Positions 1-61,500 of a stretch of DNA of 64,000 nucleotides are shown here, piece by piece (position 1 is the first letter of the stretch; every line of letters starts with the position of its first letter). The DNA is from Adineta vaga (Eukaryota > Animalia > Rotifera). The notes beneath the pieces are model-generated. The model searched no databases. It had not been told where the DNA came from and was given only the letters and a program-made list of their open reading frames with translations. The position numbers and the translations under genes are program-made. The stretch spans positions 2,170,001-2,234,000 of the forward strand of contig CP075496.1 in NCBI GenBank assembly GCA_021613535.1, in the 5' to 3' direction.

Positions 1-14950
<14,950 letters not shown>

Positions 14951-15756
14951 TGCTTCAATCTAGAAAAAGAAATATTTATGTGGTGTATGTGCTTCGTAAC
15001 GTATAAAATATATACTGATCGATCGACGAAAGTATCGCAAGCAAATAAAGAGAATGTGATGATTCATTCGATGAAAGATTTAAATTCTACTTAGAAATAT
15101 ATATAGATCTATATATGTATGTGTATAGACTTTGTTGTTCGATCAACTGAAGAAAAATAAATGCACCGAGGACGCTGACTGACGAATCGATGTCACAGCA
15201 GGCAGAAAAGAAAAACAAGAAAGAACGAAGAAAAATAAGAATTAGAAAATAGGTTTCTGTTTACATCTTCGTATGATATGAACCAAAAGAAAAATCATGC
15301 ATACGAGAGAATAAAATTTATGTGAAAATTGCTCATCGTTTTTTTTCTCGTTAGATACTTTTTTTATTTAATAAAATGATATTTTTCAAAGATATAATTA
15401 TCGCTATCAGATATCTTCATCATTCATTCTCTTTTTCTTATCAATAATAGGACTGGAGCAGAGAAGAGTCCAATGATAGAACGAATATGATGGTTGGTTG
15501 TTTAATAAAAATCAAGCGAAAAAATGTAGAGGAGGATAAAGAATATTTTCAATGAATAATAAGTTTTTTTTTCTTATCTTTCGTGATGACTAAAATCAAT
15601 TTAATATTTGTCATGAATGATATCTAGAAAACAAAACAAAGTTATTATTCTAACATCAACATTGCTTTGTTATAGGTTTTTGTATTTTTCTAACAAACAA
15701 AAGCACACTAACAGAAAACTGGTTTTGTTTTTTGATTCTAAAGAAACAATACTAGA

Positions 15757-21164: not shown

Positions 21165-21906
21165 GACATCTCATTGGAAGAACTTCACAAATATTTTGAG
21201 ACATGCCGTAATTATCATTGTTGTTTACGTATTTCAATAGGTCGCTGTGGATATCCTGGAAAACTTAAACGTCTAATAAAATTGCTTGATAATATTTTTA
21301 CAAACAATAAGCTGAATGTACCACAGGAGAGTCTTGGCATGTATACATCGCAATGGCCATCATAAAAATCAATAAACTGGGTCATGTATTAAATATTCTA
21401 CGCATCCGTCCGTCTATTTTTCTGATATTCATGAGAATGATCTGTTGCCATCATCTAATCCTATGTGTATCTCGAAGAGTCCAGTTGAATGGAATACGTC
21501 TCTGACATTGAACTTAGAGCGTATGAGGTTCAATCTCTCCTCCTCAATTCAAAAATCACACTGTTTATTTCTATTGTACTGGTGTTTATAAGTTACAAGC
21601 TGTACGTCTAAATGCACAATGTGTCTTATCAGAATGGAATGTGTATCTTTACGTTATATGGAACAAAAGGATATGCAAATCGTTCTGCTCTTTCGCTCCG
21701 CTATGCTTATGCTTGCTTTTCTCTAATTGTGCAACGTGGTAATTATAAGCTACATTGTCTCTTCAGGACTGACATGATCATAGGGTTTTAATTTCGCTAA
21801 TAAAAAAAAGTCCTATGTGTATCTACATTACTTTTTAAAAACGGAATCTCAAAAGGCATATTTATTTTAAATAAGTTTTAAAAACATATTTAATGTTCTT
21901 CTTTTT

Positions 21907-24600
21907 TTAATTGGCTTTATAAATAATCAAATACTCAGCATATGCTTGAGCATCATGATAAGTAACAAAAATATGTTGACCATCTGTAGTTGAATCATAT
22001 CCATCAGGACAAGTTTTCATCGAACTATTACCTTTCGTTGACTTACCAACTAGGACACGTACTACAAACATGCATCGTTTCCCTTTCGTATTTGGAGGAG
22101 CATATGTGTGACTATAAGATGCATTGGATGAAAAATACACACCGTTACCATAGGCCGTGCCTGTAAATGAAACAGTATCCAGATAATTAACAACCGAATA
22201 CAAGAGTAATTGTACGAACCGTTTACTCCAGAAAAATTTCGATCGAAACATTTTTTAATAATCGAATTTGCTGCAATTTCTGGACAACCATGATAGAGAA
22301 TTTTTTCTGTATTTTGGTGTAAACGTTTCTTAAAACCTTCGCTATGAGCGAAATATTGTAAATACCATTGTTCATTTTGTATTCGTTCAATTCGAACTAT
22401 TTTTGTATAGTTACCTTTAATCGTTTAATCAAATTGATTAATAATAGTCTTATATTCATTCGATGTTTGTGATACTTCGAAACGAATTTTATTTTCTTTA
22501 GATCCTACCCATGTGGTTGGTATTGAAGAAGTGGACAATATAGAAGTGACTCCTCAATAGAAATAATATCACATCGACTTTTCTTATCTTTTTATATTAT
22601 TCAGATACTATTTCTAGAAATATAACTATTGATGCGATTACGATCGTTATGATAGATCTGAACTTCGAACTACATTCTTAAACCTAATACTTCTTTTTAA
22701 AATATTTCGAATAGTCTGCATATTACGAAAGAAATATATTGCTCTCTCTCTCTACGTAACACTTCAAGTAATAAGAGAATATTCAGATCAATCAATCATA
22801 GAAGGATATGTGCTATCATTTCCTCTATAATTTTTAGTTACGATTTTCTTTTTTTAATACTTGTCGACAAAATTCATCATATAGACCTTGTTGACTGGCT
22901 TCAATGACAAACTTTACTGTCAGTGGATAATTTCGAAGAGTTAATTGATTTTTAATTTCTTTCACCATCGTTTTTACAACAACGTCAACGGAACAGCCAT
23001 GCTTTCCACATCCGATAGCTGGAAATGCGATTGAAGTGAATCTATATGATATGACGTGTACAATAACAGTCGATACTAAATCAATAAATGATAGTCGCAG
23101 TTGTGTTTCATCAGTAGTTGGTTTCCAATTGAGAAAAAAATTTTTTTACAAGATAAAGAACCTGGTATTGTTGAAATCAATACAGCATTAGGATCATTTT
23201 TCTGTTCATTCATATATTCAGTTCGAACTGCACTACCAGCTGCCCGAAAAATTCCTTCTAATAAGGCTGTTGATGATGAACTTCCAACAATAATATCTAC
23301 CTGAAACATATCTCAATGATATTATCAGTTTAGAAATAAGTTCAATGTTTACTGTTTGTTTTGTAATGTCACCTTTTTCAACAATGATATTACCTCGTCC
23401 AACTAGAACAGATGTTATATTCGCTGATTGAGAGACTATATGTGATTTTGCTGAAGCATGAATTTGTTGCTTAAACCCATCAAAGATATCAGTTCTATTC
23501 TGTTGAATAATAAATGAAACAGAAATTGGATGTGTCGGAATCTTTTGTCCATGGAAGAAAATAAACCATTTTCGAAGCTAATTGTTTGGTGGCAATAATC
23601 TCATCATTTACATTCTTTTTTTTCCTCAGTATTAAACGAAGTTTTTAGAGAGTCTCCAGCAACTTGAAAAATGTTCTCCAAGAGAAACTCTGATGTTGAA
23701 CATATTACAATAACATCACACTAAAATCACAAATACAATTCCTTTCTCATGAATATCTTTTAGATCTACTTACATTTTGCGTTGTAAAATCGCCTTTTAA
23801 AACCTCAATCGACGACACTGGACTTGTATTACCCAAAGAGGTCTGTGAATGAAATACAAGAACAGTATTTACAATTAACTATGAAGTCTTTTCTTAAATT
23901 TCTGAAAATAATTTATATGCAAAACTATTTCAAAAAATCGATACTCATTCGCATTACTTCATATAGATATTTGATTTATAAAAGATAAAACTAGAACTAG
24001 TGTACTTTCGTTTTTTCTTCTTAAATCTGAGGTATGCTGTGAATGACTTGTAAATGCATAGATAAGAACATGATGGTAGTATCGTTTAAGGGTCTTAAAT
24101 TCTGTTGGAAAAAATGGAGAGCAAACAAATGTATATCGTTTGTATGTTTAATAATGTATGAATAAATCGAAGCTACCACAAAACTAAAAACGTCGTATAA
24201 CAAGAGATCAGCTGCGGGTCCATATATATATATATCTAATCTAAGGATTATTAAGGCTTCTTATGTAAAAGTTAATATTCCATAAAATATATGAGTTTTG
24301 TGCATATACTTACAAAATCTTGAGCTGTTGTGATCTCATCAGTGTCACGTACATGAGAAGAAATTGATGAAATTATCGACAAGGATCCTAACAAACATCG
24401 ATGTGCACAATTATTTCCATTTTCAATGCTTCCATTTTTTAGAATACAACTTGATAGTACCCACTGTTAGATTTTACTTTTTCTGGATACAACACGACAA
24501 TATTCTGGCAAGTTATTTTACTACTTTGAAATAACTCGAGTTTTCATTAATAATTTTGTTACAGAAGAATGATTTCTAACTACGTCAGGTAAACTAATAT
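21907..24600 (-). pseudogene. Decayed macrodomain-PARP (PARP14/15-like mono-ADP-ribosyltransferase); 5' limit uncertain
   Basis: Catalytic exons IERIQNEQWY...ILYHG...FDRNFSGVN/GTAYGNGVYF...RVLVG...HIFVTYHDAQAYAEYLI; macro motifs KGDFTTQ, DIIVGSS, SIAFPAIGCG. In-frame TAA at 22425-22427, a 1-nt shift in the homopolymer at ~23134-23147, and a truncated upstream macro exon. Confidence 0.8.
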
Positions 24601-46212: not shown

Positions 46213-46558
46213 AAAGTGTCGCTCTGGCAGATCAGTGTTGCCACCGATCCACATGATTTCGTCATCGCAACATGTATTTAATCCGCAGGGATTTTTACCT
46301 CTTGGTAAGTTGTAATAAGCAACTTGTCTAGATGAGATATGGAGCAAGACGTTTTTGTTGTCCCTACATCAATTATTTTGGAAGAAGCAAACGAAAAGTG
46401 CAAAGTGTAGAGACATAGTAGATGTCGTGCTCCACACGTCGTGAAGACAAATTGCTTATTAAAACTTACCAAGAGGTAAATACCATCAGAAAAATACATG
46501 TTGCGATGACGAAATCATGCGGATCGGTGACAACACTGATCTGCCAGAGCGACACTTT
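46213..46558. mobile_element. 346-bp fold-back element (MITE-like) or hairpin-RNA locus
   Basis: Arms 46213-46368 and 46406-46558 are reverse complements; the outer 67 bp have 2 mismatches and the inner part is more diverged; ~37-nt loop. No clear TSD. Confidence 0.7.
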
Positions 46559-49470: not shown

Positions 49471-50194
49471 TTAAGAGAAAAACAGGAAAAATGAATAATT
49501 CAAATAAATATGTTTTGAACATTATCTTTCATTTCTCTCAAAAATATTATAAACATATTTTTTGTATAAATTTCAAGAATAGAAGGAGTGAAATAATAGA
49601 CAAATTGATACTTATCCAAACTTGCTATGGGAACAGATCGTAAAATATCAGGAAGACAAGCAGGCTGTCAGGCTTGCTAATATTATATATGAAAATAATA
49701 TGAAGATCTCATGAATAACATAATCTTCAATGTGATGTAGAAAATTTACTCTACAATCGGCTCAAAAGTCAAGATAATGTATTCTCTTCTCTATTTGTAC
49801 CGTTCGCTTCGTCTTTTCATACATGAATACAAGATAAAACGATTTTTCTCATACGATATGATTACACTACCATACATAAACAGACTTTCACTTGTCATTC
49901 ACTTAATACTCATCTTAACATAGTGAACTGTTCCACACTATTTTAAGATGATATCTTTTTTCTGAGTTTCTTCGTCTCTGTCCATTTATATGATGAATGA
50001 TTCTTTTGTCGTGACACACATGAATCATTCATCATATATATGTCTAGTACAGACATGTATTGTTTGCATCACTACGGTGGGTGATACTGCCCAGTTAGTG
50101 TTCTTAAAACAGTGAGCAGAGTTTTTCTGCACACACACGATTTATTTATTTCATAGTTCTCTCTTTATTACAGAAAAATAAAATAAAACACGAA

Positions 50195-51953
50195 TTATAG
50201 TTTCTTTTTTACACAATCAAAGTTTCTTTCATACCTTTGAAGATTAGGATGTTCTGAAGACAATGATTGTTGCGCAATTTGTACAGCACGCTCATAAAAT
50301 GAGCAGGCTTTTGCATAGTTCTTCGTGTTTTCATACACCAAACCGATGTTGTTGTAAGATGTAGCCAAATCAGGATGATTTGGAGGAAGTGATTGTTGTC
50401 GAATTGCAAGGGCTTTTTCATGAGATGAAAGTGCTTTTGGATGGTCACCCATGTTGTAATACACATTACCGATGTTGTTGTAAGATGTAGCCCAATCAGA
50501 ATCTTGAGGAGAAAGAGTTTTCTCCTTGATGGCAAGTGATTTTTCATACACTCTGATCGCCTCATCATATTCTCCTCGATTGTATTTGATACAACCTAGT
50601 CTATGATAAATTCGTCCTTTTTCACTCTCCTTGATTGCTTGATCAAGTAGCATTTCATAAATCTCTTCAGCCTTATCATTTTGACCCAATTTGATTAGTA
50701 CTGAACCCAATCTGTACCACCCCTCTTCGTCTGGAAAACTCTTCTCGTATGCGCTCAGTCAGTGCATGTAATTCCTTGTCACTATCACTGGTCAGTGTCA
50801 AACTCACTTCGAAGAGTTTGTTATTTCCACTCATTTGTTTGATATCGTGAATTCGAAACACGCTGTGCATTGAAAACAGCACTTCATCTTCGCCCTCAAT
50901 GGCACTAAGATCACGAATTGATGCAAATGCTGTTGTTGATTGTTTTGGATCAATTGTCATCACAAACAAAATTGCCACCAAATCTGGATTACTAATATTC
51001 TCTTTGGCAAACCAAAGTGAAATATCTTTATTCTTGCTAGTGGATAAGAAGTTGTTAAAGGACATGAGTCCACCTTTTGTCTGCTTGAGTTGTTCGAAAT
51101 CTGCCTTTGATAATCCTTGTCCACGATAAACTGTGAAGATATGATCCATATGTTGTTCTTGATGCACGGATTCGATATGTCGATGTAGATCATTAATAAA
51201 GAAACCCATCCGTGTCATGATGTCACCATCCATCATTCGGATTCCACGATTGAGCATGCGATAAAAGAAACATTCATAAGTATACCACCAGATAGGCTTT
51301 TTCTGATGATACTTGTGTTCCAATCGTTCCACATTCTCTAATTCCCGATCGTTATCGATGAAAAGTTCACGACAGTAGTTGACATAATCTTGAATATGTG
51401 TGTCGTCGAATTTGATGGTCACTAAGATCTTCTTGAGGATCTGAGTGTGCATGAAAGAGGGATCTAGTTGATCCAACTTTTTGCCAGATGTCACGAAACT
51501 CATTGATACAGCATTTTGTTCACATTGTGCTGCTGCTTGTTTGATAGCTTCACAGATAGGTTTGATCTCTGTGAAGACTCCCTTGATCTTTGGCCAATCC
51601 TTTGCCCATCCTTCATGTCGTTGTTTGTTGCCACAAAAGATAAAAATGGAATCCACTTGAGACAGATCATGTACTTGAGGCACAATAAGCTGTCCAAGTG
51701 AACCTGAAATAATCATACATGCCTTACGATCTTTGATTGTTTCAATGAATTGGATGCACTGATCACTATCGATGTAAGTATTTAAATCATTGACACAACG
51801 TCGAAGGTGTGTCATTGTATTTTGACAATCTTCGTTGTTCTTATCGATATTGCCATCCAACCATATAAGAAGAATATTTTGGATCTTCTGAATATCTAGA
51901 CGACGATGTGCACGTGTGTCTTGTGAAATCGAGCTTGATTTGCTACTTGCCAT
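50195..51953 (-). pseudogene. Receiver-like/ART/TPR gene, copy 1 (3 TPR units), 2-bp deletion at the ART-TPR junction
   Basis: Paralog of 55979-58507. GAG GAT AGT in copy 2 corresponds to GAA G-- AGT here (~50740), shifting the frame; stop at 50676. The TPR frame 50195-50740 stays open. Confidence 0.85.
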
Positions 51954-54900
51954 TGACTTCGTTTTCAATGTGAATATTGTAGATTAAGATTTTTTAAAGA
52001 AGTTAAAAATGATAAAATAGTGAAGAAAAACGACTTTTATAGATCTTTTCTGCTGTCTTGATACTACATCTTTTTATGGCTATATCACTTGTTGTTATCG
52101 AAAATCAACAAAACTCAGCATGCAAATCGTCATCAATGCAATAAATGTAAAATAAAAAAGCATAAATGAAATGCTTCTTATGATTCTAATAGTACTTGAA
52201 TCAATCGGCGAAAAAGAGATGATCATAGTATTTAATGAGAGTGTTGCATGTTTGTTAAAGGTAAAAACGATTTTCTTATTCTTTTATTTTAAGCCGCATT
52301 TTTGTATGAAGAACAAAAAGTTGGAAGAAAACATGTTTTTTTAATATCAATAGACACAATATAAACCGTGTAAACCGCGGATAACATACGATTCGAAGAA
52401 TATTCATTTATCATCAATAAATACATATCAATACGAGAACTAACAGTAGAATAATTAAGATTGTTATTCTGCAAAATATTTCATATAGATTTTTTTTTCA
52501 TTTTGTTCTAATATAACATTCAAATAAAGAGAGAAAAATATCTTCTCAACGATAATGTTCATCCACTATTCAAGATATATGAAATTATAATCAAGTTCAA
52601 AAAAAACTATTTAATAAATGATAAGTTATTTTTCATTGATATTGATACACAGATAAATTCATAGAATAAGATTTTGTTTCGATTACTCATCACGAATAAA
52701 TGAAAACTTTAATGCTTTATCTATCTTATCCCAGCATCAGTTCATTAGAAATCAAAATAATCATGAAGTCAGTTACTGGAATATTATATTCTCTGCGGAT
52801 ATTGATTCAATTCACAATAAGTGGCATATGCAAATAACATTCGTTGTATGTAATGAGCCAGTCAAAATAAAAATAATATTGATATCATCTAAAACTGCGC
52901 ATCTGTGAGTCGTTTTGAACAATTCGACACAAGTAAGTTTTCGATGTATCAAATTTTGTTTTAATCAAACTTTTTAAGATAAGATACAGAAAAAAAAGAT
53001 TGATTCTATTTCGATATTAAAGGAATATAAATGATTTTTAAAATATACGACTCGTTAATAATTTAAATTATTGATATCAGATTTTTTTGTGCGAGAAATC
53101 TTCGAAAAATGAATCGAATAATAAAAAGACTCGAATTTAATTTTAGTAAGAAACGTCAATTTGATTTCTTTTCCCTATCAATCTAAAGATAAGTTTTAAG
53201 GAACAATCTTCATCTTTTCAAATAAACAACACGGAAGAAGAATTAACGTATATATTTCTGAATAATAATTTGAAATCAATATAAAAGCTCTTTTATCTTT
53301 ATAATTCAAACAGAATCATGTTCGTGTTAATTTCCTTAAAATTACCAAATTTATTCAATCAAAAAGATTGATGTTTAAATTAGAGTTTTTGCTTCTTGTG
53401 AATTAGTTGAAGATGATAAACAAAGCGTACATTGTAATATTCATAGCATTTGTTTTCAAAACAACTTTGATTGTGAATGATGAAATTGTATTCAATGGTA
53501 ATATAAAGAACTACGTGAATAATAAAAGTTGACAATTTCTTTTAAGAAAGATTGTATTCATTAAAGGAAAAAATAGAGAAATTTCTTTTTAGTATGATAA
53601 TGTATAGAGTTGGAGAGAGAGCAAGACGAGATATAAATCGAAGAAGAAAACGCATAAAATATTTTGCTCACTTCTACCTATGATAAAATAATTGAAACCA
53701 TGTATATTGAGAGATCTAATTAATATATACATTAGCATTGGTCCTGGTTCATTTCTATACAACACAATGACAGAAAATCATATTGAAATTTAATTTAATT
53801 ATTTACTAGAAAAGAATTTTATTTTAGTGATTTCTTTTTTCCTTCATATATCTTCATCGTTTTATATTTATTATGATTACCAAAAAGTTTCGATCACAAG
53901 GAAGTTTATCGCAATATTTATTGGAAAAAAATGAAAGGTAAAAAAATTATTGTTTCTAATTACTATTTAAAAGAGTTTTTTATCGAGAAAATACTTTAAA
54001 TTCCAAATAAATAATGACTTTTCAAAACTTCATTTTTTCCCTTCCAGTAAATCGCTCTTTCTTCTTCAAACTGTTTTTGAGGATTAATATGAGAGAGATA
54101 GAACGATGAATGAATAATTGTGGAAGTTTGTCTTTAATAAAATAGTAAAAAGCTATTCTGGTTTGTGTTATTCAACATTTTCTTATTCATTTTTTGACAC
54201 GAATGCAAAATACTATACATATATAGAAATATATTCGTTCTTGCAGCATTATCGAAAACTGACAGGTTTTTTCATTGTTGATCCTAAAACTAATTATTTC
54301 TCATTCAGTATAAAAAAACTGAGTCTAGAAATACTCTTCAATTGACTCCACATTCAAAACCTTATTGGTTCTACCCATGTAAGAAAAAATTTATGAAAAA
54401 TAAATTAACACGAAAAAGATCGTAATCGATTTTAGTCGCGCTTTAGAAGAACCGCGTTTTCTCGCTTGCTTAACCATCGGACAGACTTCTCGACCTTTTT
54501 ATGAGAATCCTCTCGTCGACAAATACTAAGTACAATAGTAGAGCAAGCTATATTTCCCTCATCATACTTTTAGGGATAGTATCCCTTGATATTCATCCAC
54601 ACATGGAGATGTATTGATGATTAAGATTAAAATCGCAGTTTTTACCGTTTTTTTTCTACTAGTGTGGTTCTTCGAATCTTATCGAATGCACCGCGTAGTA
54701 GTTGATTTTGTAAATCTATCTAGTTCTTTCTCGTAAGTGATAGAGTCAAATATTTCAGCTCATCCGACTCATCATACCATCCGTCAAAAAAGGACGATCT
54801 GTTTTTCTTTTCTTGCTCTTGTTATGTCGAGCAAAAATGTGTTTACTGTGAGGATAGGACGAACGAGGAGGTCATCTGTGAATAAAATGAGTATTTTTTT

Positions 54901-54956
54901 TTCAAAATACACGAAAATTTATGTAGACAGATCAAAAACGATTGAACATATTTCCT

Positions 54957-55601
54957 GGATGTTGAACAGGTTTTCAGGGGGTCTCTGCAAAATCATTTCT
55001 TGAAAAGTTCTCATATGTTTCATAATCGTGTGTGTTACTTGAAGATAATATTCTGTGTTCAAATAGATTTGTTTATCATGCATCGATTTATCAAGCGAAG
55101 AAGTCAATCAAGAAATGCAAAAATTTTGAGTTGAAACGATTCATCAGATGATGAATATCGCATAGATATTGTTGTTGATGAAGAAGTACCTTTCAACGAA
55201 AACCTAGATTTGGCTGACGTTGCTGATCTGGCTGAAATGTGTGAGCTACTTTATGGTACAAAATACCTTAAAACTTTGATTTACGTATCATTGCGTTTCT
55301 TCGAGGTAAAATGAGACGATGTTGCTAATTATTTAAAGAATATCGGTTTAATGGTCATTGCAACTTCTCATAAATGGGCAACAATATTTATTAAAGATGA
55401 TTACGAAGAGTTTTTGAATGATTTACGTGATGGTAAACAAACTGATTCATTTTATGACACATTTCCATAAATTGAAGCAAATGAGAATTCGTAGAACAAC
55501 GATTAACAGCGCAAAACTGTGTTTTACTGTATGGTTTTTCAGCGATTCTCTAAAAACCTGTTGAACATCCTAGTACAATTGTATTTCAATGAGATCCTCA
55601 T
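54957..55601 (+). mobile_element. Internally deleted DNA-transposon remnant (Tc1/IS630-like N-terminal region, tentative)
   Basis: 55141-55480 translates ...LIYVSLRFFEVK*DDVANYLKNIG...SHKWATIF...DLRDGKQTDSFYDTFP*IE with two stops (55312, 55468). Degenerate inverted repeat 54957-54991 / 55536-55570 (28/35). Confidence 0.45.
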
Positions 55602-55978
55602 CCGTGAACTGTTCCACACTATTTTAAGATGATCTATATATTTTTTTAGTTTCTCTTTCTCTATGCATTTATAATGATGAATGATTCTTTTGCCGGAACA
55701 CAAATGAATCATTCATCATATATAATTACGCACTTTATTGTTACACAGCCTGTTGAGTGGCTATTCTTTCTTACTCAACACAGAAAAATTCTTCTTGTTG
55801 TTTTTTGACACCGACAAACATAACCGTGTAGGTCTTTTCTAGCAATACATGTCTAATACAGTGGGTGATACTGCCCAGTTAGTGTTTTTAAAACAGTGAG
55901 TAGAGTTTTTCTGTACGCGCGCGATTCATTTATTTAATAGTTTTCTCTTTATTACAGAAAAATAGAATAAAACACGAA

Positions 55979-58507
55979 TTATTTCTTTTTCGTGTTTGCA
56001 AGGTTATTTCTATACATCTGAAGATTAGGATGTTCTGAAGGCAATGATTGTTGTGCAATCTGTACAGCACGCTCATAAAATGAACAGGCTTTTGCATAGT
56101 TCTTCGTGTTTTCATACGCCAAACCGATGTTGTTGTAAGATGAAGCCAAATGAGGATGATTTGGAGAAAGTGATTGTTGTTGAATTCCAAGGGCTTTTTC
56201 ATGAGATGAAAGTGCTTTTGGATAGTCACCCATCTTGTAATACACCAAACCGATGTTGCCATAAGATGAAGCCAAATCAGGATGATTTGGAGGAAGTGAT
56301 TGTTGTTTGATTGAAAGGGCTTTTTCATGAGATGAAAGTGCTTTTGGATAGTCACCCATCTTGTAATACACCAAACCAATGTTGTTGTAAGATGTAGCCA
56401 AATGAGGATGATTTGGAGGAAGTGATTGTTGATTAATTGCAAGGGCCTTTTCATGAGATGAAAGTGCTTTTGGATAGTCACCCATGTTGTAATACACCAA
56501 ACCGATGTTGCCATAAGATGAAGCCAAATCAGGATGATTTGGAGGAAGTGATTGTTGTTTGATTGAGAGGGCTTTTTCATGCGATGAAAGTGCTTTTGGA
56601 TAGTCACCCATGTTGTCATACACCAAACCGATGTTGTTGTAAGATGAAGCCAAATGAGGATGATTTGGAGGAAGTGATTGTTGACTAATTGCCAGATCTT
56701 TCTCATAATATGAAAGTGCTTTTGGATAGTCACCCATGTTCGAATACACCAAACCGATGTTGTTGTAAGATTTAGCCAAATCAGGATGATTTGGAGGAAG
56801 TGATTGTTGACTAATTGCCAGATCTTTCTCATAATATGAAAGTGCTTTTGGATAGTCACCCATGTTCGAATACACCAAACCGGTGTTGTTGTAGGATGAA
56901 GCCAAATCAGGATGATTTGGAGGAAGTGATTGTTGACTAATTGCAAGTGCTTTTTCATAATATGAAAGTGCTTTTGGATAGTCACCCATGCTGTAATACA
57001 CTCCACCGATGTTGTTGTAAGATTTAGCCAACTCAGGATCTTGAGGAGAAAGAGTTTTCTCCTTGATGGCAAGTGATTTTTCATACAATCTGATAGCCTC
57101 TTCATATTCTCCTCGATTGTATTTGATCGAACCAAGTTGATGATAAATTGGTGCCTTGTCACTCTCCTTCGTTGCTTGATCAAGTAACATTTCATAAATC
57201 TCTTCAGCCTTATCATTTTGACCCAATTTGATTAGTACTGAACCCAATCTGGACCACCCCTCTTCTTCTGGAAAACTATCCTCTCGTATGCGCTCAGTCA
57301 GTGCATGTAATTCTTTGTCATTATCACTGGTCAGTGTCAAACTCACTTCGAAGAGTTTGTTATTTCCACTCATTTGTTTGATATCCTGAATTCGAAACAC
57401 GCTGTGCATTGAAAATAGCACTTCATCTTCACCCTCAATGGCACTAAGATCACGAATTGATGCAAATACTGTTGTTGATTGTTTTGGTTCTATTGTCATC
57501 ACAAACAAAATTGCCACCAAATCGGGATTACTAATATTCTCTTTGGCAAACCAAAGTGAAATATCTTTATCCTTGCTGGTGGATAAGAAATTGTTAAACG
57601 ATATGAGTCCACCTTTTGTCTGCTTTAGTTGTTCGAAATCTGCCTTTGATAATCCTTGTCCACGATAAACTGTAAAGATATGATCCATATGTTGTTCTTG
57701 ATGCACGGATTCGATGTGTCGATGTAGATCATTAATAAAGAAACCCATCCGTGTCATGATGTCACCATCCATCATTCGAATGCCACGATTGAGCATGCCG
57801 TATAAGAAGCAATGATAAGTATACCACCAGATAGGTGTTTTCTGATGATATTTGCGTTCCAATAATTTCACATTGTTCAATTCTCGATCGTTATCGATGA
57901 AAAGTTCACGACAGTAGTTGACATAATCTTGAATATGTGTATCGTCGAATTTAATGGTCAATAAGATCTCCTTCAGGATCTGAGTGTACATGAACGAAGG
58001 ATCTAGTTGATCTAACTTTTTGCCAGATGACACAAAACTCATTGATACAGCATTTTGTTCACATTGTGCTGCTGCTTGTTTGATAGCTTCACAGATGGGT
58101 TTGATCTCTGTGAAGACTCCCTTGATCTTTGGCCAATCCTTTGCCCATCCTTCATGTCGTTGTTTGTTGCCACAAAAGATAAAAATGGAATCCACTTGAG
58201 ACAGATCATGTACTTGAGGTACAATAAGCTGTCCAAGTGCACCTGAAATAATCATGCAGGCCTTACGATCTTTGATTGTTTCAATAAATCTGATGCACTG
58301 ATCGCCATCTGTGTATGTGTTTAAATCATTGACAGCACGTCGAAGATGTGCCATTGTATTTTGACAATCTTCGCTGTTGTCATCTATGTTGCCATCCAAC
58401 CATATAAGCAGCACATTTTGGATCTTTTGAATGTCGAGACGACGGCGTCCACGTGTGTTTCTTGAAGCTCCAGTTGTTTTTTGAGTTGTTGTGGTGCTAC
58501 TTGCCAT
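55979..58507 (-). CDS. Receiver-like domain + arginine-type (R-S-E) ADP-ribosyltransferase + TPR array, copy 2 (intact, 842 aa, intronless CDS)
   Basis: (beta/alpha)5-like N-domain (LLIWLD...ACMIISG...SIFIFC...KGVFTE); ART motifs VYRG, FLSTS, EDEVLF; nine 42-aa kinesin-light-chain-type TPR units. Confidence 0.92.
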   Translation of the reverse strand: MASSTTTTQKTTGASRNTRGRRRLDIQKIQNVLLIWLDGNIDDNSEDCQNTMAHLRRAVNDLNTYTDGDQCIRFIETIKDRKACMIISGALGQLIVPQVHDLSQVDSIFIFCGNKQRHEGWAKDWPKIKGVFTEIKPICEAIKQAAAQCEQNAVSMSFVSSGKKLDQLDPSFMYTQILKEILLTIKFDDTHIQDYVNYCRELFIDNDRELNNVKLLERKYHQKTPIWWYTYHCFLYGMLNRGIRMMDGDIMTRMGFFINDLHRHIESVHQEQHMDHIFTVYRGQGLSKADFEQLKQTKGGLISFNNFLSTSKDKDISLWFAKENISNPDLVAILFVMTIEPKQSTTVFASIRDLSAIEGEDEVLFSMHSVFRIQDIKQMSGNNKLFEVSLTLTSDNDKELHALTERIREDSFPEEEGWSRLGSVLIKLGQNDKAEEIYEMLLDQATKESDKAPIYHQLGSIKYNRGEYEEAIRLYEKSLAIKEKTLSPQDPELAKSYNNIGGVYYSMGDYPKALSYYEKALAISQQSLPPNHPDLASSYNNTGLVYSNMGDYPKALSYYEKDLAISQQSLPPNHPDLAKSYNNIGLVYSNMGDYPKALSYYEKDLAISQQSLPPNHPHLASSYNNIGLVYDNMGDYPKALSSHEKALSIKQQSLPPNHPDLASSYGNIGLVYYNMGDYPKALSSHEKALAINQQSLPPNHPHLATSYNNIGLVYYKMGDYPKALSSHEKALSIKQQSLPPNHPDLASSYGNIGLVYYKMGDYPKALSSHEKALGIQQQSLSPNHPHLASSYNNIGLAYENTKNYAKACSFYERAVQIAQQSLPSEHPNLQMYRNNLANTKKK
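56021..57154 (-). repeat. Tandem 126-bp TPR-coding repeat, 9 units
   Basis: 1134 bp = 9 x 126; the seven inner units are near-identical at DNA level. Confidence 0.95.
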
Positions 58508-61500
58508 TGATTTGATTTGTTCTGTTGATGAGAATAACAAATATTGTGAATTTTAATTCCTTTGAATTTGAAAAATTACTAATAATTGACTGGCGAAAAT
58601 TTGCTCATTATATAGATCTCTGTTCTCTTCATCTGTGTTTTTCTTTTGTTTTTGTTGAACAACGCCTTTTTTATTTTGCTGCTTTTTCTTATTTCTTCCG
58701 AAATCAGGCGCAAACAAAGGAATCCATTTAACGAGGTACTCTTACATAGCTGCCAGTCATCGAAATAGTCGCCGAAAACGAATGTTTTTTTATTTGTTCT
58801 GTCTTCAAAACGTACTCTTATTGTTTGCGTTTGAGAATCGAAGGATGGAAAAATCTTCATGACGACGACAACAATAACAGAAGAGTTTCAATCATTGTCC
58901 TTCTCTTTTTCATTATTTTAAAATAAAATTATCTACAATAAGGATATGATTGGTCCATTGAAACAGAGATTGAGTGAGAAAAAAGAAGTTTTTGTTATTT
59001 AATTCTGACTATAGATGATCTATACATTTTGCGAAGAAATGTGATTATAAAATCTTTCCACGAAAAAAAACTTGACAGAATTTGTCTTATGATTTTGTTT
59101 GATTTCTTCAACAATGTGAAGTAAATAAACACAACATAAATTCTGCATTCATGTTTTTCTTTTTGAAATATTTTCAAATTCTTTTAGTTGTTGTTCACTT
59201 TTCTATTCTTTGACTACATATAATATTCTGTAATAGGAAGTATTCTTCGTGTTGTTTCTTATAACATATACAATATGCACTTTTGTTCTATTTCTTCTTC
59301 GCACTCTCTAACCGTTAGAGAAGATTTTCAATGAAAAATGGATTCATATGTTTTTTTTTTATTTTCGATAAATTACGTAGTTAAAAAGAAAAAATTATAA
59401 CCTTCGATTTCATACCGATTCAAATGAATTTTTATATCATTAAAATATCTCTGTACACTCCAAATACTTAATTATTAACATTAGTCACATGATTCTCCGA
59501 GATTTTGGTCACGGGAATTATCCATTTTGAATTCTCTTTTGAGCTAATCAATCTTACGTTCGAACAATTGAAATGAATTCATTGATTGTAATATTATCGT
59601 CCATTCTTGTTTATTTATTTGATTGAAAACATTGAAAATCTGTCGTTTTCTTTTGGGTCTGATGCAATTTTGTTTGTCTTTTCAAACGAATAATATGTAT
59701 TACATGAATTTATATGTGAAACTTATTTCCAGACTTTCTGATGGATACAAAGTTACAGGAAAATACTGTGTATTTATATTTAAATTGTTCCTGACTACGT
59801 TTATTGAAATAGGCAACGAAAATGAATGTTTTTCTTATTTACTCTCTCTCCAAACAGTATCAGATGAAATTAGTTCATTGAAAGACAGAAAGAATAAACT
59901 TAAAGTCAAAACTATTTTCTGCAGAAATTGATTGCATTTATAATAACTAAAAATAAGTATTCGTATTTTTATTTATCTCCAAGAAGATACTTAGTTCATT
60001 TTCGACAACAAATATATATATATATATATATACATATATTATAAAGAATCTGAAGACAAAGCTTCGTTACATATATGTTCTATATATATTCTAAAGTCTT
60101 TCCGCGAAAGAAGTTTTTGAGAGGATGAGACCAGTGATAATGACATAGAATTACATGTACTGTTTGATTTCTTTCTCGGTATAAGACGTCACACTTTTTC
60201 TACATTTGTCATTCTCTCATAGCTGAATTTCAAAAACTAACAACATATTAAAAATGATTCTAATACAACTAGAATATCAGTCTATATAAATTAACAATGT
60301 GTCACAAATATTATGTAAAAACTTTTGAAAATAAACTCGATCTTTTTTCGATTTATTCAGTCTTCTTTAAATCGAGAAAATTATATATCTCACTATTCAC
60401 TGAAACATAGACAAAACGCTCAAAGTCACTATTTTGCACAGTGAGACATCTAATATCACTTTCATATCTTTATTTTAATTATAGTTCTCTTCATTTCATG
60501 TTGTCAATCCAATAATAATTGAATATCTTTTCATGCCGCATTCTATTCTCTCATCATACAGATTAGCTATTTAAACTGTTGTGATGATATTGATTCCTGT
60601 TCATAATAAGATTTAACAAACTTTTCATTCCTTATTGCTGTTTGTTCTAATGAATAGCAAGAGTCTATACTTAAACCTATCACTTTAATTCAATTTCTCG
60701 AGCAATTGATATGTCATACACATATTTCTATCTGAGAAAAACATCTTGTTCGTTCAATTCACAAAACAAACAAGTGATCTGAATGTTTTCTCAAAGAAGA
60801 GATTATACATTGGTTACATGACTGACAAGAGCATCTAAATCTCACACATATTCTCTAGTGACACGAATATAGACGAAATAAGTAAACAAGAAGAAGACAA
60901 AACGTTGAAGTGCGAAATTGAATATAGAGGAGGAAAAAAAAATATTAATTGGACTCGTGTGCACATCGATATAGCGTGTGAATTAGTTACATAAGAAATC
61001 GATCAATTGTTATTCATTTAACTTTCACTCTACATGAAATTAGTCGTAGACAATTTATCATTTTAATTCACATTCTCTTATGCATATCTAATGAATAGTC
61101 ATTATATTTGTTAGAAACAAAAAACTGTTTTCATTGTTGTTTTTTCAGTAAACTTCAAAGAAATATCACATTTTAAAGTATCTGTCAAAAGCGATTACTT
61201 GTTTGTAAAAAAAAAACTAACATAACGACAAGTTGAATAGAAGATCATTCATTTTCACAGTCATGTGTGAGAAAAGAAGATCGCCCGTTCATATTGTGAT
61301 AAAAACAAGCCTGATAGGCATGCCGTTCGGTGACACTTCTTTTATATATATGTTGATCACTAAACTAGATCGATTAAATCATTTTCAAAATAAAACCAGT
61401 GTTGTAGAAACGAAAATAAACGTGAGAGAGAGAGAGAGAATTATATAGAAAAACATCTCGATCGTGTATCAGCTGCATATACAAATCAGTCAGTCAAACA

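Follow-up and report, generated by a model that had tools for sequence, protein, structure and literature searches.

Two minus-strand genes of the bdelloid rotifer Adineta vaga encode a receiver-like domain, a predicted ADP-ribosyltransferase (ART) and an array of tetratricopeptide repeats (TPRs) in succession; they are no special pair but part of a bdelloid rotifer family that is very large. They probably serve inside the cell as defence receptors, modifying proteins once a target has been recognised. The mechanism we favour, at a probability of roughly 0.4, is that of cytosolic recognition enzymes, in which the TPR groove would bind a foreign protein and so switch on a predicted arginine ART that is otherwise restrained by a pseudo-receiver.

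The gene pair and its family

Genes A and B lie in a window of 64,000 nucleotides, the whole stretch of DNA that was analysed (contig CP075496.1). As a sequence-only reading of the window had proposed, they are paralogues on the same strand, with DNA that is 91% identical across 1687 nt in an alignment within the window (Table 1). This similarity begins within the coding region (51927/58466) and runs approximately 125 nt beyond the stop codon, and the two genes have nothing in common in their upstream DNA, so they are not a plain tandem duplication carrying its promoter. The same reading had described the coding sequences as intronless and GC-richer than their surroundings. Gene B is indeed one ORF of 842 aa, and the GC content of the pair is 0.38–0.39 (GC3, 0.34–0.37), compared with 0.29–0.35 in five other long ORFs of the window, four of which have a GC3 of 0.12–0.19. 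Between A and B, the receiver and ART regions differ with a pN of 0.034 and a pS of 0.194; judged from such sequence comparisons, purifying selection is acting on the receiver, the ART and the repeat scaffold.

Each gene had been described as carrying all three parts, and their domain content agrees with this description; gene A, however, shifts frame near 50740 and is therefore not intact in this sequence. The last 20 residues of its N-terminal ORF (51953–50676, 425 aa) are out of frame, with a stop at 50676, and the TPR part is found in an ORF of another frame (50195–50758). Whether the frameshift is real or an assembly error, we lean towards an error. Among the 32 pieces listed of 77 from four runs, none bridged the window's form of the frameshift, a gap that in itself proves nothing. 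Both the frameshift and the membership of the two genes in a very large family had been overlooked in the sequence-only reading.

Table 1. Features of genes A and B, numbered from the first nucleotide of the window
Feature	Position	Strand	Basis or remark
Gene A, 3′ flank	50073..50198	-	91% like gene B 3′ flank
Gene A, TPR part in the other frame, up to the stop: a short TPR followed by three 42-aa units	50195..50738	-	
Gene A, frameshift at the ART-TPR junction	50736..50744	-	Pseudogene allele or assembly error
Gene A, coding part ahead of the frameshift, with receiver-like domain and R-STS-ExE ART, 405 in-frame codons	50739..51953	-	
Gene B, 3′ flank	55857..55982	-	91% like gene A 3′ flank
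Gene B, intact coding sequence in one ORF of 842 aa, with pseudo-receiver, ART and TPR array	55979..58507	-	ORF and Pfam
Gene B, array of TPRs, with 10 helical hairpins and a cap helix; one short TPR, then nine 42-aa kinesin-light-chain-type units	55982..57265	-	
Gene B, seven near-identical internal 126-nt repeats	56147..57028	-	Mean identity 89% nt, 83% aa
Gene B, ART domain, residues 165–410, helical part and catalytic core	57278..58015	-	Pfam, fold search
Gene B, ART ExE (E360-x-E362)	57422-57430	-	
Gene B, ART STS (S309-T-S311)	57575-57583	-	
Gene B, ART R282	57662-57664	-	
Gene B, receiver-like (beta/alpha)5 domain, residues 30–152	58052..58420	-	AlphaFold model, fold search; no Pfam or NCBIfam match
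Gene B, Ser88, end of strand 3, place of the phospho-Asp in receivers	58244-58246	-	

The family yielded 3219 matches, with A. vaga as the closest named match. Receiver and ART are carried within one ORF in 77 of 80 metagenome loci, close relatives occur on six different chromosome-sized contigs, and many near-identical contigs are present in sequencing runs of A. vaga. Database labels for members include ‘Kinesin light chain’ and ‘ADP ribosyltransferase domain-containing’, and best-match names for A. vaga ART or ART-TPR genes include ‘TPR repeat containing protein-like’, ‘TPRA_2’ and ‘VIP2’. These bdelloid labels are automatic or cursory, and the available text is silent on the receiver fold, catalytic conservation and groove variation. 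An expansion of TPR families with a suggested role in defence is mentioned in the available text of one study (PMC3846280), and our literature searches found no paper on the receiver-ART-TPR architecture. The family was apparently overlooked in part because the receiver-like domain has no Pfam model and because, for close paralogues, ten A. vaga gene models at NCBI omit the catalytic core.

The suggestion of a bacterial origin found no support, as no true homologue of the architecture was recovered from prokaryotes, phages, plasmids or viral contigs in searches that were word-seeded or saturated with rotifer sequences. A scan of prokaryote genomes returned 10 loci, eight of them weak. Three of the weak matches (L005, L006 and L009) were rejected because a motif matches by chance within a methyltransferase-like gene, and the other five cover the same stretch of the query. 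Of the two remaining loci, L002 joins bacterial DNA of 65% GC to DNA of 32–38% GC with a fragmented family gene and was attributed to contamination, as was L001, a MAG contig of 1.9 kb. PADLOC and NCBIfam gave nothing meaningful for the non-TPR part, a search among viral folds brought up nothing beyond generic ART and TPR matches (10–22% identity), and both ESM Atlas searches were headed by clusters from Rotifera.

Domain architecture

The AlphaFold model of the three domains (pTM 0.91, mean pLDDT 94) predicts that the receiver fold, the ART and the array's first three TPRs are packed in a fixed arrangement. The proposal of a CheY-like N-terminal domain, with a serine in place of the phospho-acceptor aspartate, agrees with this model, in which the domain adopts a (beta/alpha)5 fold (pLDDT 95–98 across the domain) and Ser88 closes strand 3. 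Seven receiver entries (LqsR, PorX, LytR, XynC and three others) are among the best 50 fold matches, with Z-scores of 12.4–13.1, rmsd of 2.2–2.6 and identities of 8–14%. No TIR entry is among these 50 matches, most of which are TPR matches to the three-domain query; the domain may still be related to TIR domains. With receiver positions assigned by topology and the CheY layout, not by residue-level structural alignment, Ser replaces the phospho-Asp in 99 of 123 diverse members and the Asp following strand 1 is retained in 98; a conserved Lys after strand 5 was not found in these 123. Five residues are invariant across 53 receiver-domain sequences, the profile of which matched no PDB or Pfam entry.

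The Pfam family ADPrib_exo_Tox (PF03496) scores above the cut-off in both genes, and the R-STS-ExE motif that had been read from the sequence is intact. Fold neighbours of the ART include Vis as well as HopU1 (Z 13.9) and entry 6drh (Z 12.6), at 16–19% identity. Across gene B and its 120 close matches, the motif is nearly invariant (R, 121/121; S, 120/121; first E, 119/121; catalytic E, 121/121), and the full R-S-E-E set is retained in 102 of 123 diverse members and in 55 of 66 distinct metagenome loci. ExE marks arginine acceptors among R-S-E ARTs, and the domain is predicted to have NAD+-dependent ADP-ribosyltransferase activity of the arginine type.

A cytosolic location and the lack of an NTPase switch had also been proposed, and the observations are in keeping with both. 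In gene B, a crude hydrophobicity window found neither an N-terminal hydrophobic stretch nor a membrane segment, and the C-terminus is the TPR cap helix, which is not the signal-peptide and GPI-anchor organisation of ecto-ARTs or secreted toxins. By the same kind of window, and without SignalP, 6 of 240 Met-starting family members were flagged for a hydrophobic N-terminus. No P-loop family is among the Pfam matches listed, and the three-domain model has no room for an NTPase.

Variation in the TPR array

The counts of nine and three repeats given in the sequence-only reading were confirmed as 42-aa units, each array being preceded by one shorter TPR; the hairpins of gene B were counted on a full-length single-sequence fold, of which residues 1–415 were disregarded. 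Variable repeat number, also proposed there, is seen in comparisons between paralogues: lengths of family proteins cluster on a 42-aa ladder, and there are 0–12 units per protein.

The seven internal repeats of gene B differ chiefly at unit positions 2, 5, 9, 12, 13 and 23–31. Among 531 internal units from the family, positions 12, 2, 9 and 13 are four of the five most variable, and position 31, in the linker, varies as much as the groove sites do. Repeats within one protein share 30% identity at five predicted groove sites vs. 72% elsewhere, and the 531 units hold 393 distinct five-site groove codes. Codon fits, which converge poorly on a few sites, gave an omega of 1.19 at the predicted groove sites vs. 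0.30 elsewhere. At the groove sites an omega of 0.3 fits about 48 log units worse, while 1.0 fits as well as 1.5, and the pooled groove codons have a higher pS (0.45) than pN (0.35). Relaxed constraint therefore explains the data as well. The array had been likened to the variable TPRs of fungal NLRs, which are of the kinesin-light-chain type and vary on the concave face (PMC4986451, in part). The likeness stands insofar as variation is concentrated on the predicted groove face, but positive selection is not established by these fits. A Podospora TPR structure is among the fold neighbours of the array.

Proposed mechanism, rival readings and known systems

As we envisage it, the variable groove would bind a foreign protein from pathogens or selfish elements, and binding would switch on the predicted arginine ADP-ribosyltransferase, whose substrate could be either the ligand itself or a protein of the host. 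The pseudo-receiver would act as a conformational brake on the ART, not as a phospho-switch, providing allosteric gating without an NTPase, and recombination could generate new specificities through the gain, loss and homogenisation of repeats. Cell death would be costly for an animal of fixed cell number, which counts against this mechanism. We further suggest, as a tentative extension that may well prove wrong, that bdelloids have probably hundreds of such NTPase-free intracellular immune receptors per genome, with a domesticated two-component receiver as the ART off-switch and recombining TPR arrays as the source of specificity.

Induction upon pathogen challenge found no support in the one fungal infection study consulted. 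In the lists given there, the arginine-ART term GO:0003956 occurs only among down-regulated HGT candidates (for A. vaga, 6 and 19 of 431; for A. ricciae, 8 of 366) and is missing from every up-regulated list searched (PMC11258130); the genes under this term may or may not belong to the receiver-ART-TPR family. The few A. vaga ART-TPR genes listed in another study are transcribed at low levels (PMC12220480, in part). Two runs that we guess to be RNA contain paralogue contigs that are approximately 95% alike.

Catalytic conservation and groove variation would fit equally well if the proteins were ungated targeting enzymes, with the groove choosing the substrate, in the manner of the O-GlcNAc transferase TPRs, and the ART modifying anything bound there, for example a pathogen effector or a viral or transposon protein. 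The receiver-like domain would then be structural or a docking surface, and the defence would be of an antibody-plus-enzyme kind instead of an alarm. Such enzymes would require neither an NTPase switch nor cell death, and low constitutive expression is compatible with them. We nevertheless consider this account rather unlikely, since it leaves the family-wide retention of the pseudo-receiver unexplained and since many unbraked cytosolic ARTs would be expected to risk off-target modification.

Roles outside defence appear improbable. Regulatory enzymes acting in, for example, desiccation or metabolic signalling, each paralogue with its own host clients, would accord with the absence of induction by the one pathogen tested and with the decrease of ADP-ribosylation genes in spaceflight (PMC12220480, in part). 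They would be expected to form stable orthologues with fixed repeats, however, whereas the repeats observed are near-identical within a gene, variable in number and different mostly at the predicted groove. We give little credence to a selfish or largely neutral expansion, in which copies without introns multiply through recombination or passive transport, as AACRNL elements, which bear an ART, are reported to do, and groove sites vary simply for lack of constraint. The single-ORF organisation of most metagenome loci, the many near-identical contigs in sequencing runs, the dispersal of relatives over several chromosome-sized contigs, the lack of a common promoter for A and B, the broken gene A and a groove omega near 1 could all be accommodated in this way. 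Purifying selection on the three conserved parts argues against it, as do the absence of any ORF of transposase or reverse-transcriptase size near the genes in the window's ORF list and the description of the AACRNL protein as UBL-ART, with no TPR or receiver mentioned in the available text (PMC12957317).

It has long been asked how bdelloids, without regular sex, keep up with parasites. If the tentative extension given above holds, a largely asexual animal would draw receptor diversity from this family, which would be built on a sensor-effector design that lacks the NTPase switch of NLRs. It would also place a receiver-fold domain in an animal, a kingdom in which we know of no other two-component signalling. 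The published answers considered here centre on horizontally acquired biosynthetic genes (PMC11258130, in part). A large and diversifying family of repeat-plus-enzyme proteins would contribute a recognition arm to them, along with specific testable loci.

Each part of the architecture has known counterparts. The N-terminal domain shares with CheY-like receivers the (beta/alpha)5 fold and, mostly, the Asp after strand 1, but it has Ser for the phospho-Asp, lacks the conserved Lys after strand 5 and matches no profile. The ART has the fold and R-STS-ExE motif of the R-S-E (ARTC, cholera-toxin-like) enzymes, such as HopU1, Vis, 6drh, the VIP2/C2 type and vertebrate ecto-ARTs. Unlike these, the rotifer protein has no evident signal peptide or delivery domain, and its ART sits between a pseudo-receiver and TPRs in a large family of an animal's own genome. 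With kinesin light chains, in which an N-terminal coiled coil binds the kinesin heavy chain, only the 42-aa repeat type is common, the rotifer N-terminus being receiver-like plus ART. The AACRN/AACRNL Crinkler-like elements likewise represent a toxin-derived ART expanded in free-living animals including rotifers, but they have an N-terminal UBL domain (PMC12957317, in part). RRNPP peptide sensors (PlcR, NprR and Rap, which are among the TPR fold matches) also combine a TPR groove and an N-terminal output domain in one chain, by analogy only; they are quorum sensors of bacteria whose outputs are DNA binding or phosphatase activity, and their repeats do not vary in number as those of the rotifer do. 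Fungal NLR-like receptors (Podospora Pa_2_10340 type; PDB 4y6w) differ in that the rotifer family has no NACHT or NB-ARC and instead has a receiver-like domain and an ART. They share with it kinesin-light-chain-type TPRs that are near-identical within a gene and variable in number, variation on the concave face (predicted in the rotifer), and an N-terminal enzyme followed by C-terminal repeats.

Genes A and B in the window

Genes A and B, taken by the sequence-only reading for a same-strand pair of intronless, GC-richer paralogues, are 91% identical in DNA across 1687 nt. Both are GC-richer than neighbouring ORFs, most strongly at third positions (0.34–0.37 vs 0.12–0.19). Gene B is intact, whereas a frameshift in gene A, which that reading missed, places its receiver-like and ADP-ribosyltransferase (ART) domains in one frame and its TPRs in another. 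At this site, two contigs of one DNA run and one of another from the same organism carry an indel relative to the window. Of 77 pieces from four runs, the 32 listed (down to 38–39 nt in length) include no piece that bridges the window form. We lean towards an assembly error, with the proviso that contigs cannot prove the window form absent. The locus is a real feature and an ordinary member of its family.

The 3′ flank is common to both genes, and sequence comparison found no similarity between their 5′ flanks. On the plus strand, the hairpin 3′ of gene A has CTAG after it, loosely resembling a Helitron end. The short ART-like piece is possibly the remnant of a third copy. The PARP candidate would be another ADP-ribosylation gene within the window.

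Features of the window discussed in the text
Feature	Position	Strand	Description
Gene B	58507-55979	minus	single ORF, 842 aa
Gene A	51953-50195	minus	split by frameshift near 50740
Hairpin	49983-50042		AT-rich, 27-nt arms, 3′ of gene A
Hairpin copy	55674-55724		3′ of gene B, 92% similar to that of gene A
ART-like piece	60129-60167	plus	39 nt, 85-90% like ART domain end, oriented against gene B and 1.6 kb upstream of it
Segment skipped by NCBI models	~57575-58020		equivalent position in window
MITE-like element	46213-46558		346 nt; 67-nt terminal inverted repeats (97%), inner 75-nt arms
PARP candidate	~21900-23600	minus	exon-like ORFs resembling macrodomain-containing PARP (PARP14/15 type), by-eye call
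Dynein heavy chain	~476-14959	minus	split by introns, by-eye call; host GC3 control

Receiver-like and ART domains

Residues of gene B are numbered from Met = 1. An AlphaFold model of residues 1–544, built on a 144-sequence alignment (mean pLDDT 94, pTM 0.91), has five strands and five helices at residues 32–152. This region matched seven receiver domains (Z 12.4–13.1, rmsd 2.2–2.6, 8–14% identity), in keeping with the CheY-like (beta/alpha)5 domain proposed earlier; no receiver relationship was detected by sequence profile. With key positions set by topology and the CheY layout, the phospho-acceptor position is Ser88, and the proposed serine replacement recurs in 99 of 123 diverse family members. 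Asp38 after strand 1 is kept in 98 of the 123, and no Lys following strand 5 is conserved among them. With neither a phospho-Asp nor this Lys, the domain is predicted to be a pseudo-receiver.

Pfam ADPrib_exo_Tox matches gene B at residues 230–385, with TPR families downstream, and the fold neighbours of the ART are HopU1, entry 6drh and Vis. The R-STS-ExE motif, read as intact from the beginning, is borne out by catalytic residues that are almost invariant across 121 close sequences, the full R-S-E-E set being found in 102/123 diverse members and 55/66 distinct metagenome matches. This conservation, together with the low pN relative to pS between genes A and B across receiver and ART (0.034 and 0.194), makes it likely that the ART is an active enzyme. 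By the rule that ExE marks arginine ARTs, arginine is presumably the acceptor. As anticipated for a protein without a signal peptide, a hydrophobicity window picked up neither a signal nor a membrane segment in gene B; it flagged 6 of 240 family members.

Variation in the TPR array

The predicted difference of nine versus three units was recovered, the units being 42 aa long and each gene having one further short TPR. In the gene B array, ten TPR hairpins are followed by a cap helix, and seven of its units are 89% identical in DNA. Family protein lengths peak at 593, 635, 677, 719 and 761 aa, and onward by 42. We take unit positions 2, 5, 9, 12 and 13 to be the ligand face; these five groove sites were picked after the window's repeats had been viewed. 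Among 531 internal units from 121 close proteins, positions 12, 2, 31, 9 and 13 were the most variable, and within-protein repeat identity was 30% at the five sites versus 72% elsewhere.

For the window's eight internal units, pN at the five sites was 0.36 against a pS of 0.23; elsewhere the values were 0.057 and 0.148, respectively. In the metagenome, five-site pN exceeded overall pS in 17 of 20 genes with high-identity pairs (of 56 non-redundant), and pooled five-site codons had a pS of 0.45, above their pN of 0.35. A codon model of 159 distinct units from 49 loci returned omega 1.19 at the five sites vs 0.30 elsewhere. For the five sites, the fits with omega 1.0 and 1.5 were equally good, and that with 0.3 was ~48 log units worse than that with 1.0; positive selection (omega > 1) was not supported over omega 1.0 in these units. 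The fits therefore argue that the predicted groove is free to vary, with an omega compatible with 1.0, and that the scaffold is under constraint.

Family, origin and possible role

A receiver and ART query matched 3219 proteins among 6285 candidates; the species-named matches among the 120 listed were all Adineta, the best being A. vaga (89%). A 50%-cluster library gave 5899 matches at E 0.001 and 1309 at 1e-30, and three of ten distant cluster representatives were named (A. steineri, A. ricciae and Rotaria magnacalcarata). TPRs were present in all 58 family representatives scanned. In a metagenome scan, 303 of 351 pattern matches were confirmed as family. Because receiver and ART lay within one ORF in 77 of the 80 loci kept, and 75 had a single family ORF (many loci being short, which limits the single-copy versus tandem reading), intronless genes appear typical and tandem pairing does not.

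Database names of family members refer to an ART domain, to TPRs or to 'kinesin light chain', and older GenBank entries (TPR-like, TPRA_2, VIP2) are best matches of A. vaga ART genes. Among eleven NCBI gene models examined for close A. vaga paralogues, ten (P0125, P0175, P0273-P0276, P0278, P0285, P0288, P0294) leave out the helical part of the ART, where the catalytic R and STS lie, and lack most or all TPRs. These omissions probably stem from repeat masking and invented introns, a genuine dead splice form being less favoured; paralogue contigs in two runs, taken by guess as RNA, run through these sites unspliced. In the long members P0248 and P0172 the match begins 200–300 residues in, and P0248 has two matched stretches; some members may have a doubled or extra N-terminal module.

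In a published table the arginine-ART GO term is attached to 431 A. vaga genes and 366 A. ricciae genes, other ART architectures included, so that these are not family counts (PMC11258130). The accessible part of the PMC12220480 supplement lists A. vaga ARTs fused to ankyrin repeats, an HGT-flagged fusion to a cytidylyltransferase-like domain (best match a ciliate) and one ART-TPR gene with best matches in Trichoplax. A TPR-family expansion with a suggested defence role is noted in PMC3846280. No description of the receiver-ART-TPR architecture was found in full-text literature, including the available portions of PMC3417536, PMC3482391, 10.64898/2026.10.19.760177, PMC12957317, PMC2861651 and PMC6321704; subscription literature, outside this scope, may mention the expansion. 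The family is large and apparently previously undescribed.

The bacterial origin first suggested found no support, searches of prokaryotic, phage, plasmid and viral sequences having returned no genuine homologue. A contig filed as an Acetobacteraceae MAG (L002:2000-6985) joins 65% GC bacterial genes to 32–38% GC DNA bearing a fragmented family gene, and is likely a chimeric assembly. Animals are not known to have two-component signalling, so the receiver fold is a hint of a non-animal source. Many family members have a high GC3 (metagenome loci: mean 0.33, range 0.09–0.46) and could reflect gene conversion as an alternative to a foreign source. None of the eight PF03496 rows listed in the PMC12220480 supplement, as far as available, is HGT-flagged.

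The data establish the architecture, the conserved catalytic residues and the repeat variation; folds and a fixed domain packing are predicted. We infer a cytosolic protein whose TPR groove would bind a protein that varies and is probably foreign, this binding being coupled to ADP-ribosylation. Among the mechanisms considered we tentatively favour, at a probability of roughly 0.4, a gated ART with the pseudo-receiver acting as a brake. Gating with a brake is preferred because the pseudo-receiver is kept family-wide and because a large number of ARTs without a brake would be a hazard, considerations that make ungated substrate targeting somewhat unlikely. Host regulation is a distinctly weaker candidate, and selfish or neutral spread slightly weaker still.

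An induced-defence role is counted against by infection data. In the PMC11258130 supplements the arginine-ART GO term occurs, upon fungal infection, only among down-regulated HGT candidates and is absent from the up-regulated lists (15 of 16 files, some in part); the main text mentions neither ADP-ribosyl nor TPR. Four PF03496+TPR A. vaga genes listed in the accessible PMC12220480 supplement have low constitutive expression (0.1–2.3 in the mean columns), which is compatible with a standing sensor, and no proof of one.

The value of the locus lies in a large, apparently undescribed and readily testable family rather than in an unusual pair. The family is a variation on a design that joins a putative repeat sensor to an enzyme. 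The likeness to fungal NLRs drawn by the sequence-only reading stands for unit number and groove variation: the TPRs of Podospora NLRs, for which kinesin light chain served as the model, vary in the same pattern, with selection demonstrated there (PMC4986451). Despite this NLR-like repeat variation, the family itself is no NLR; the likeness lies in how its repeats vary.
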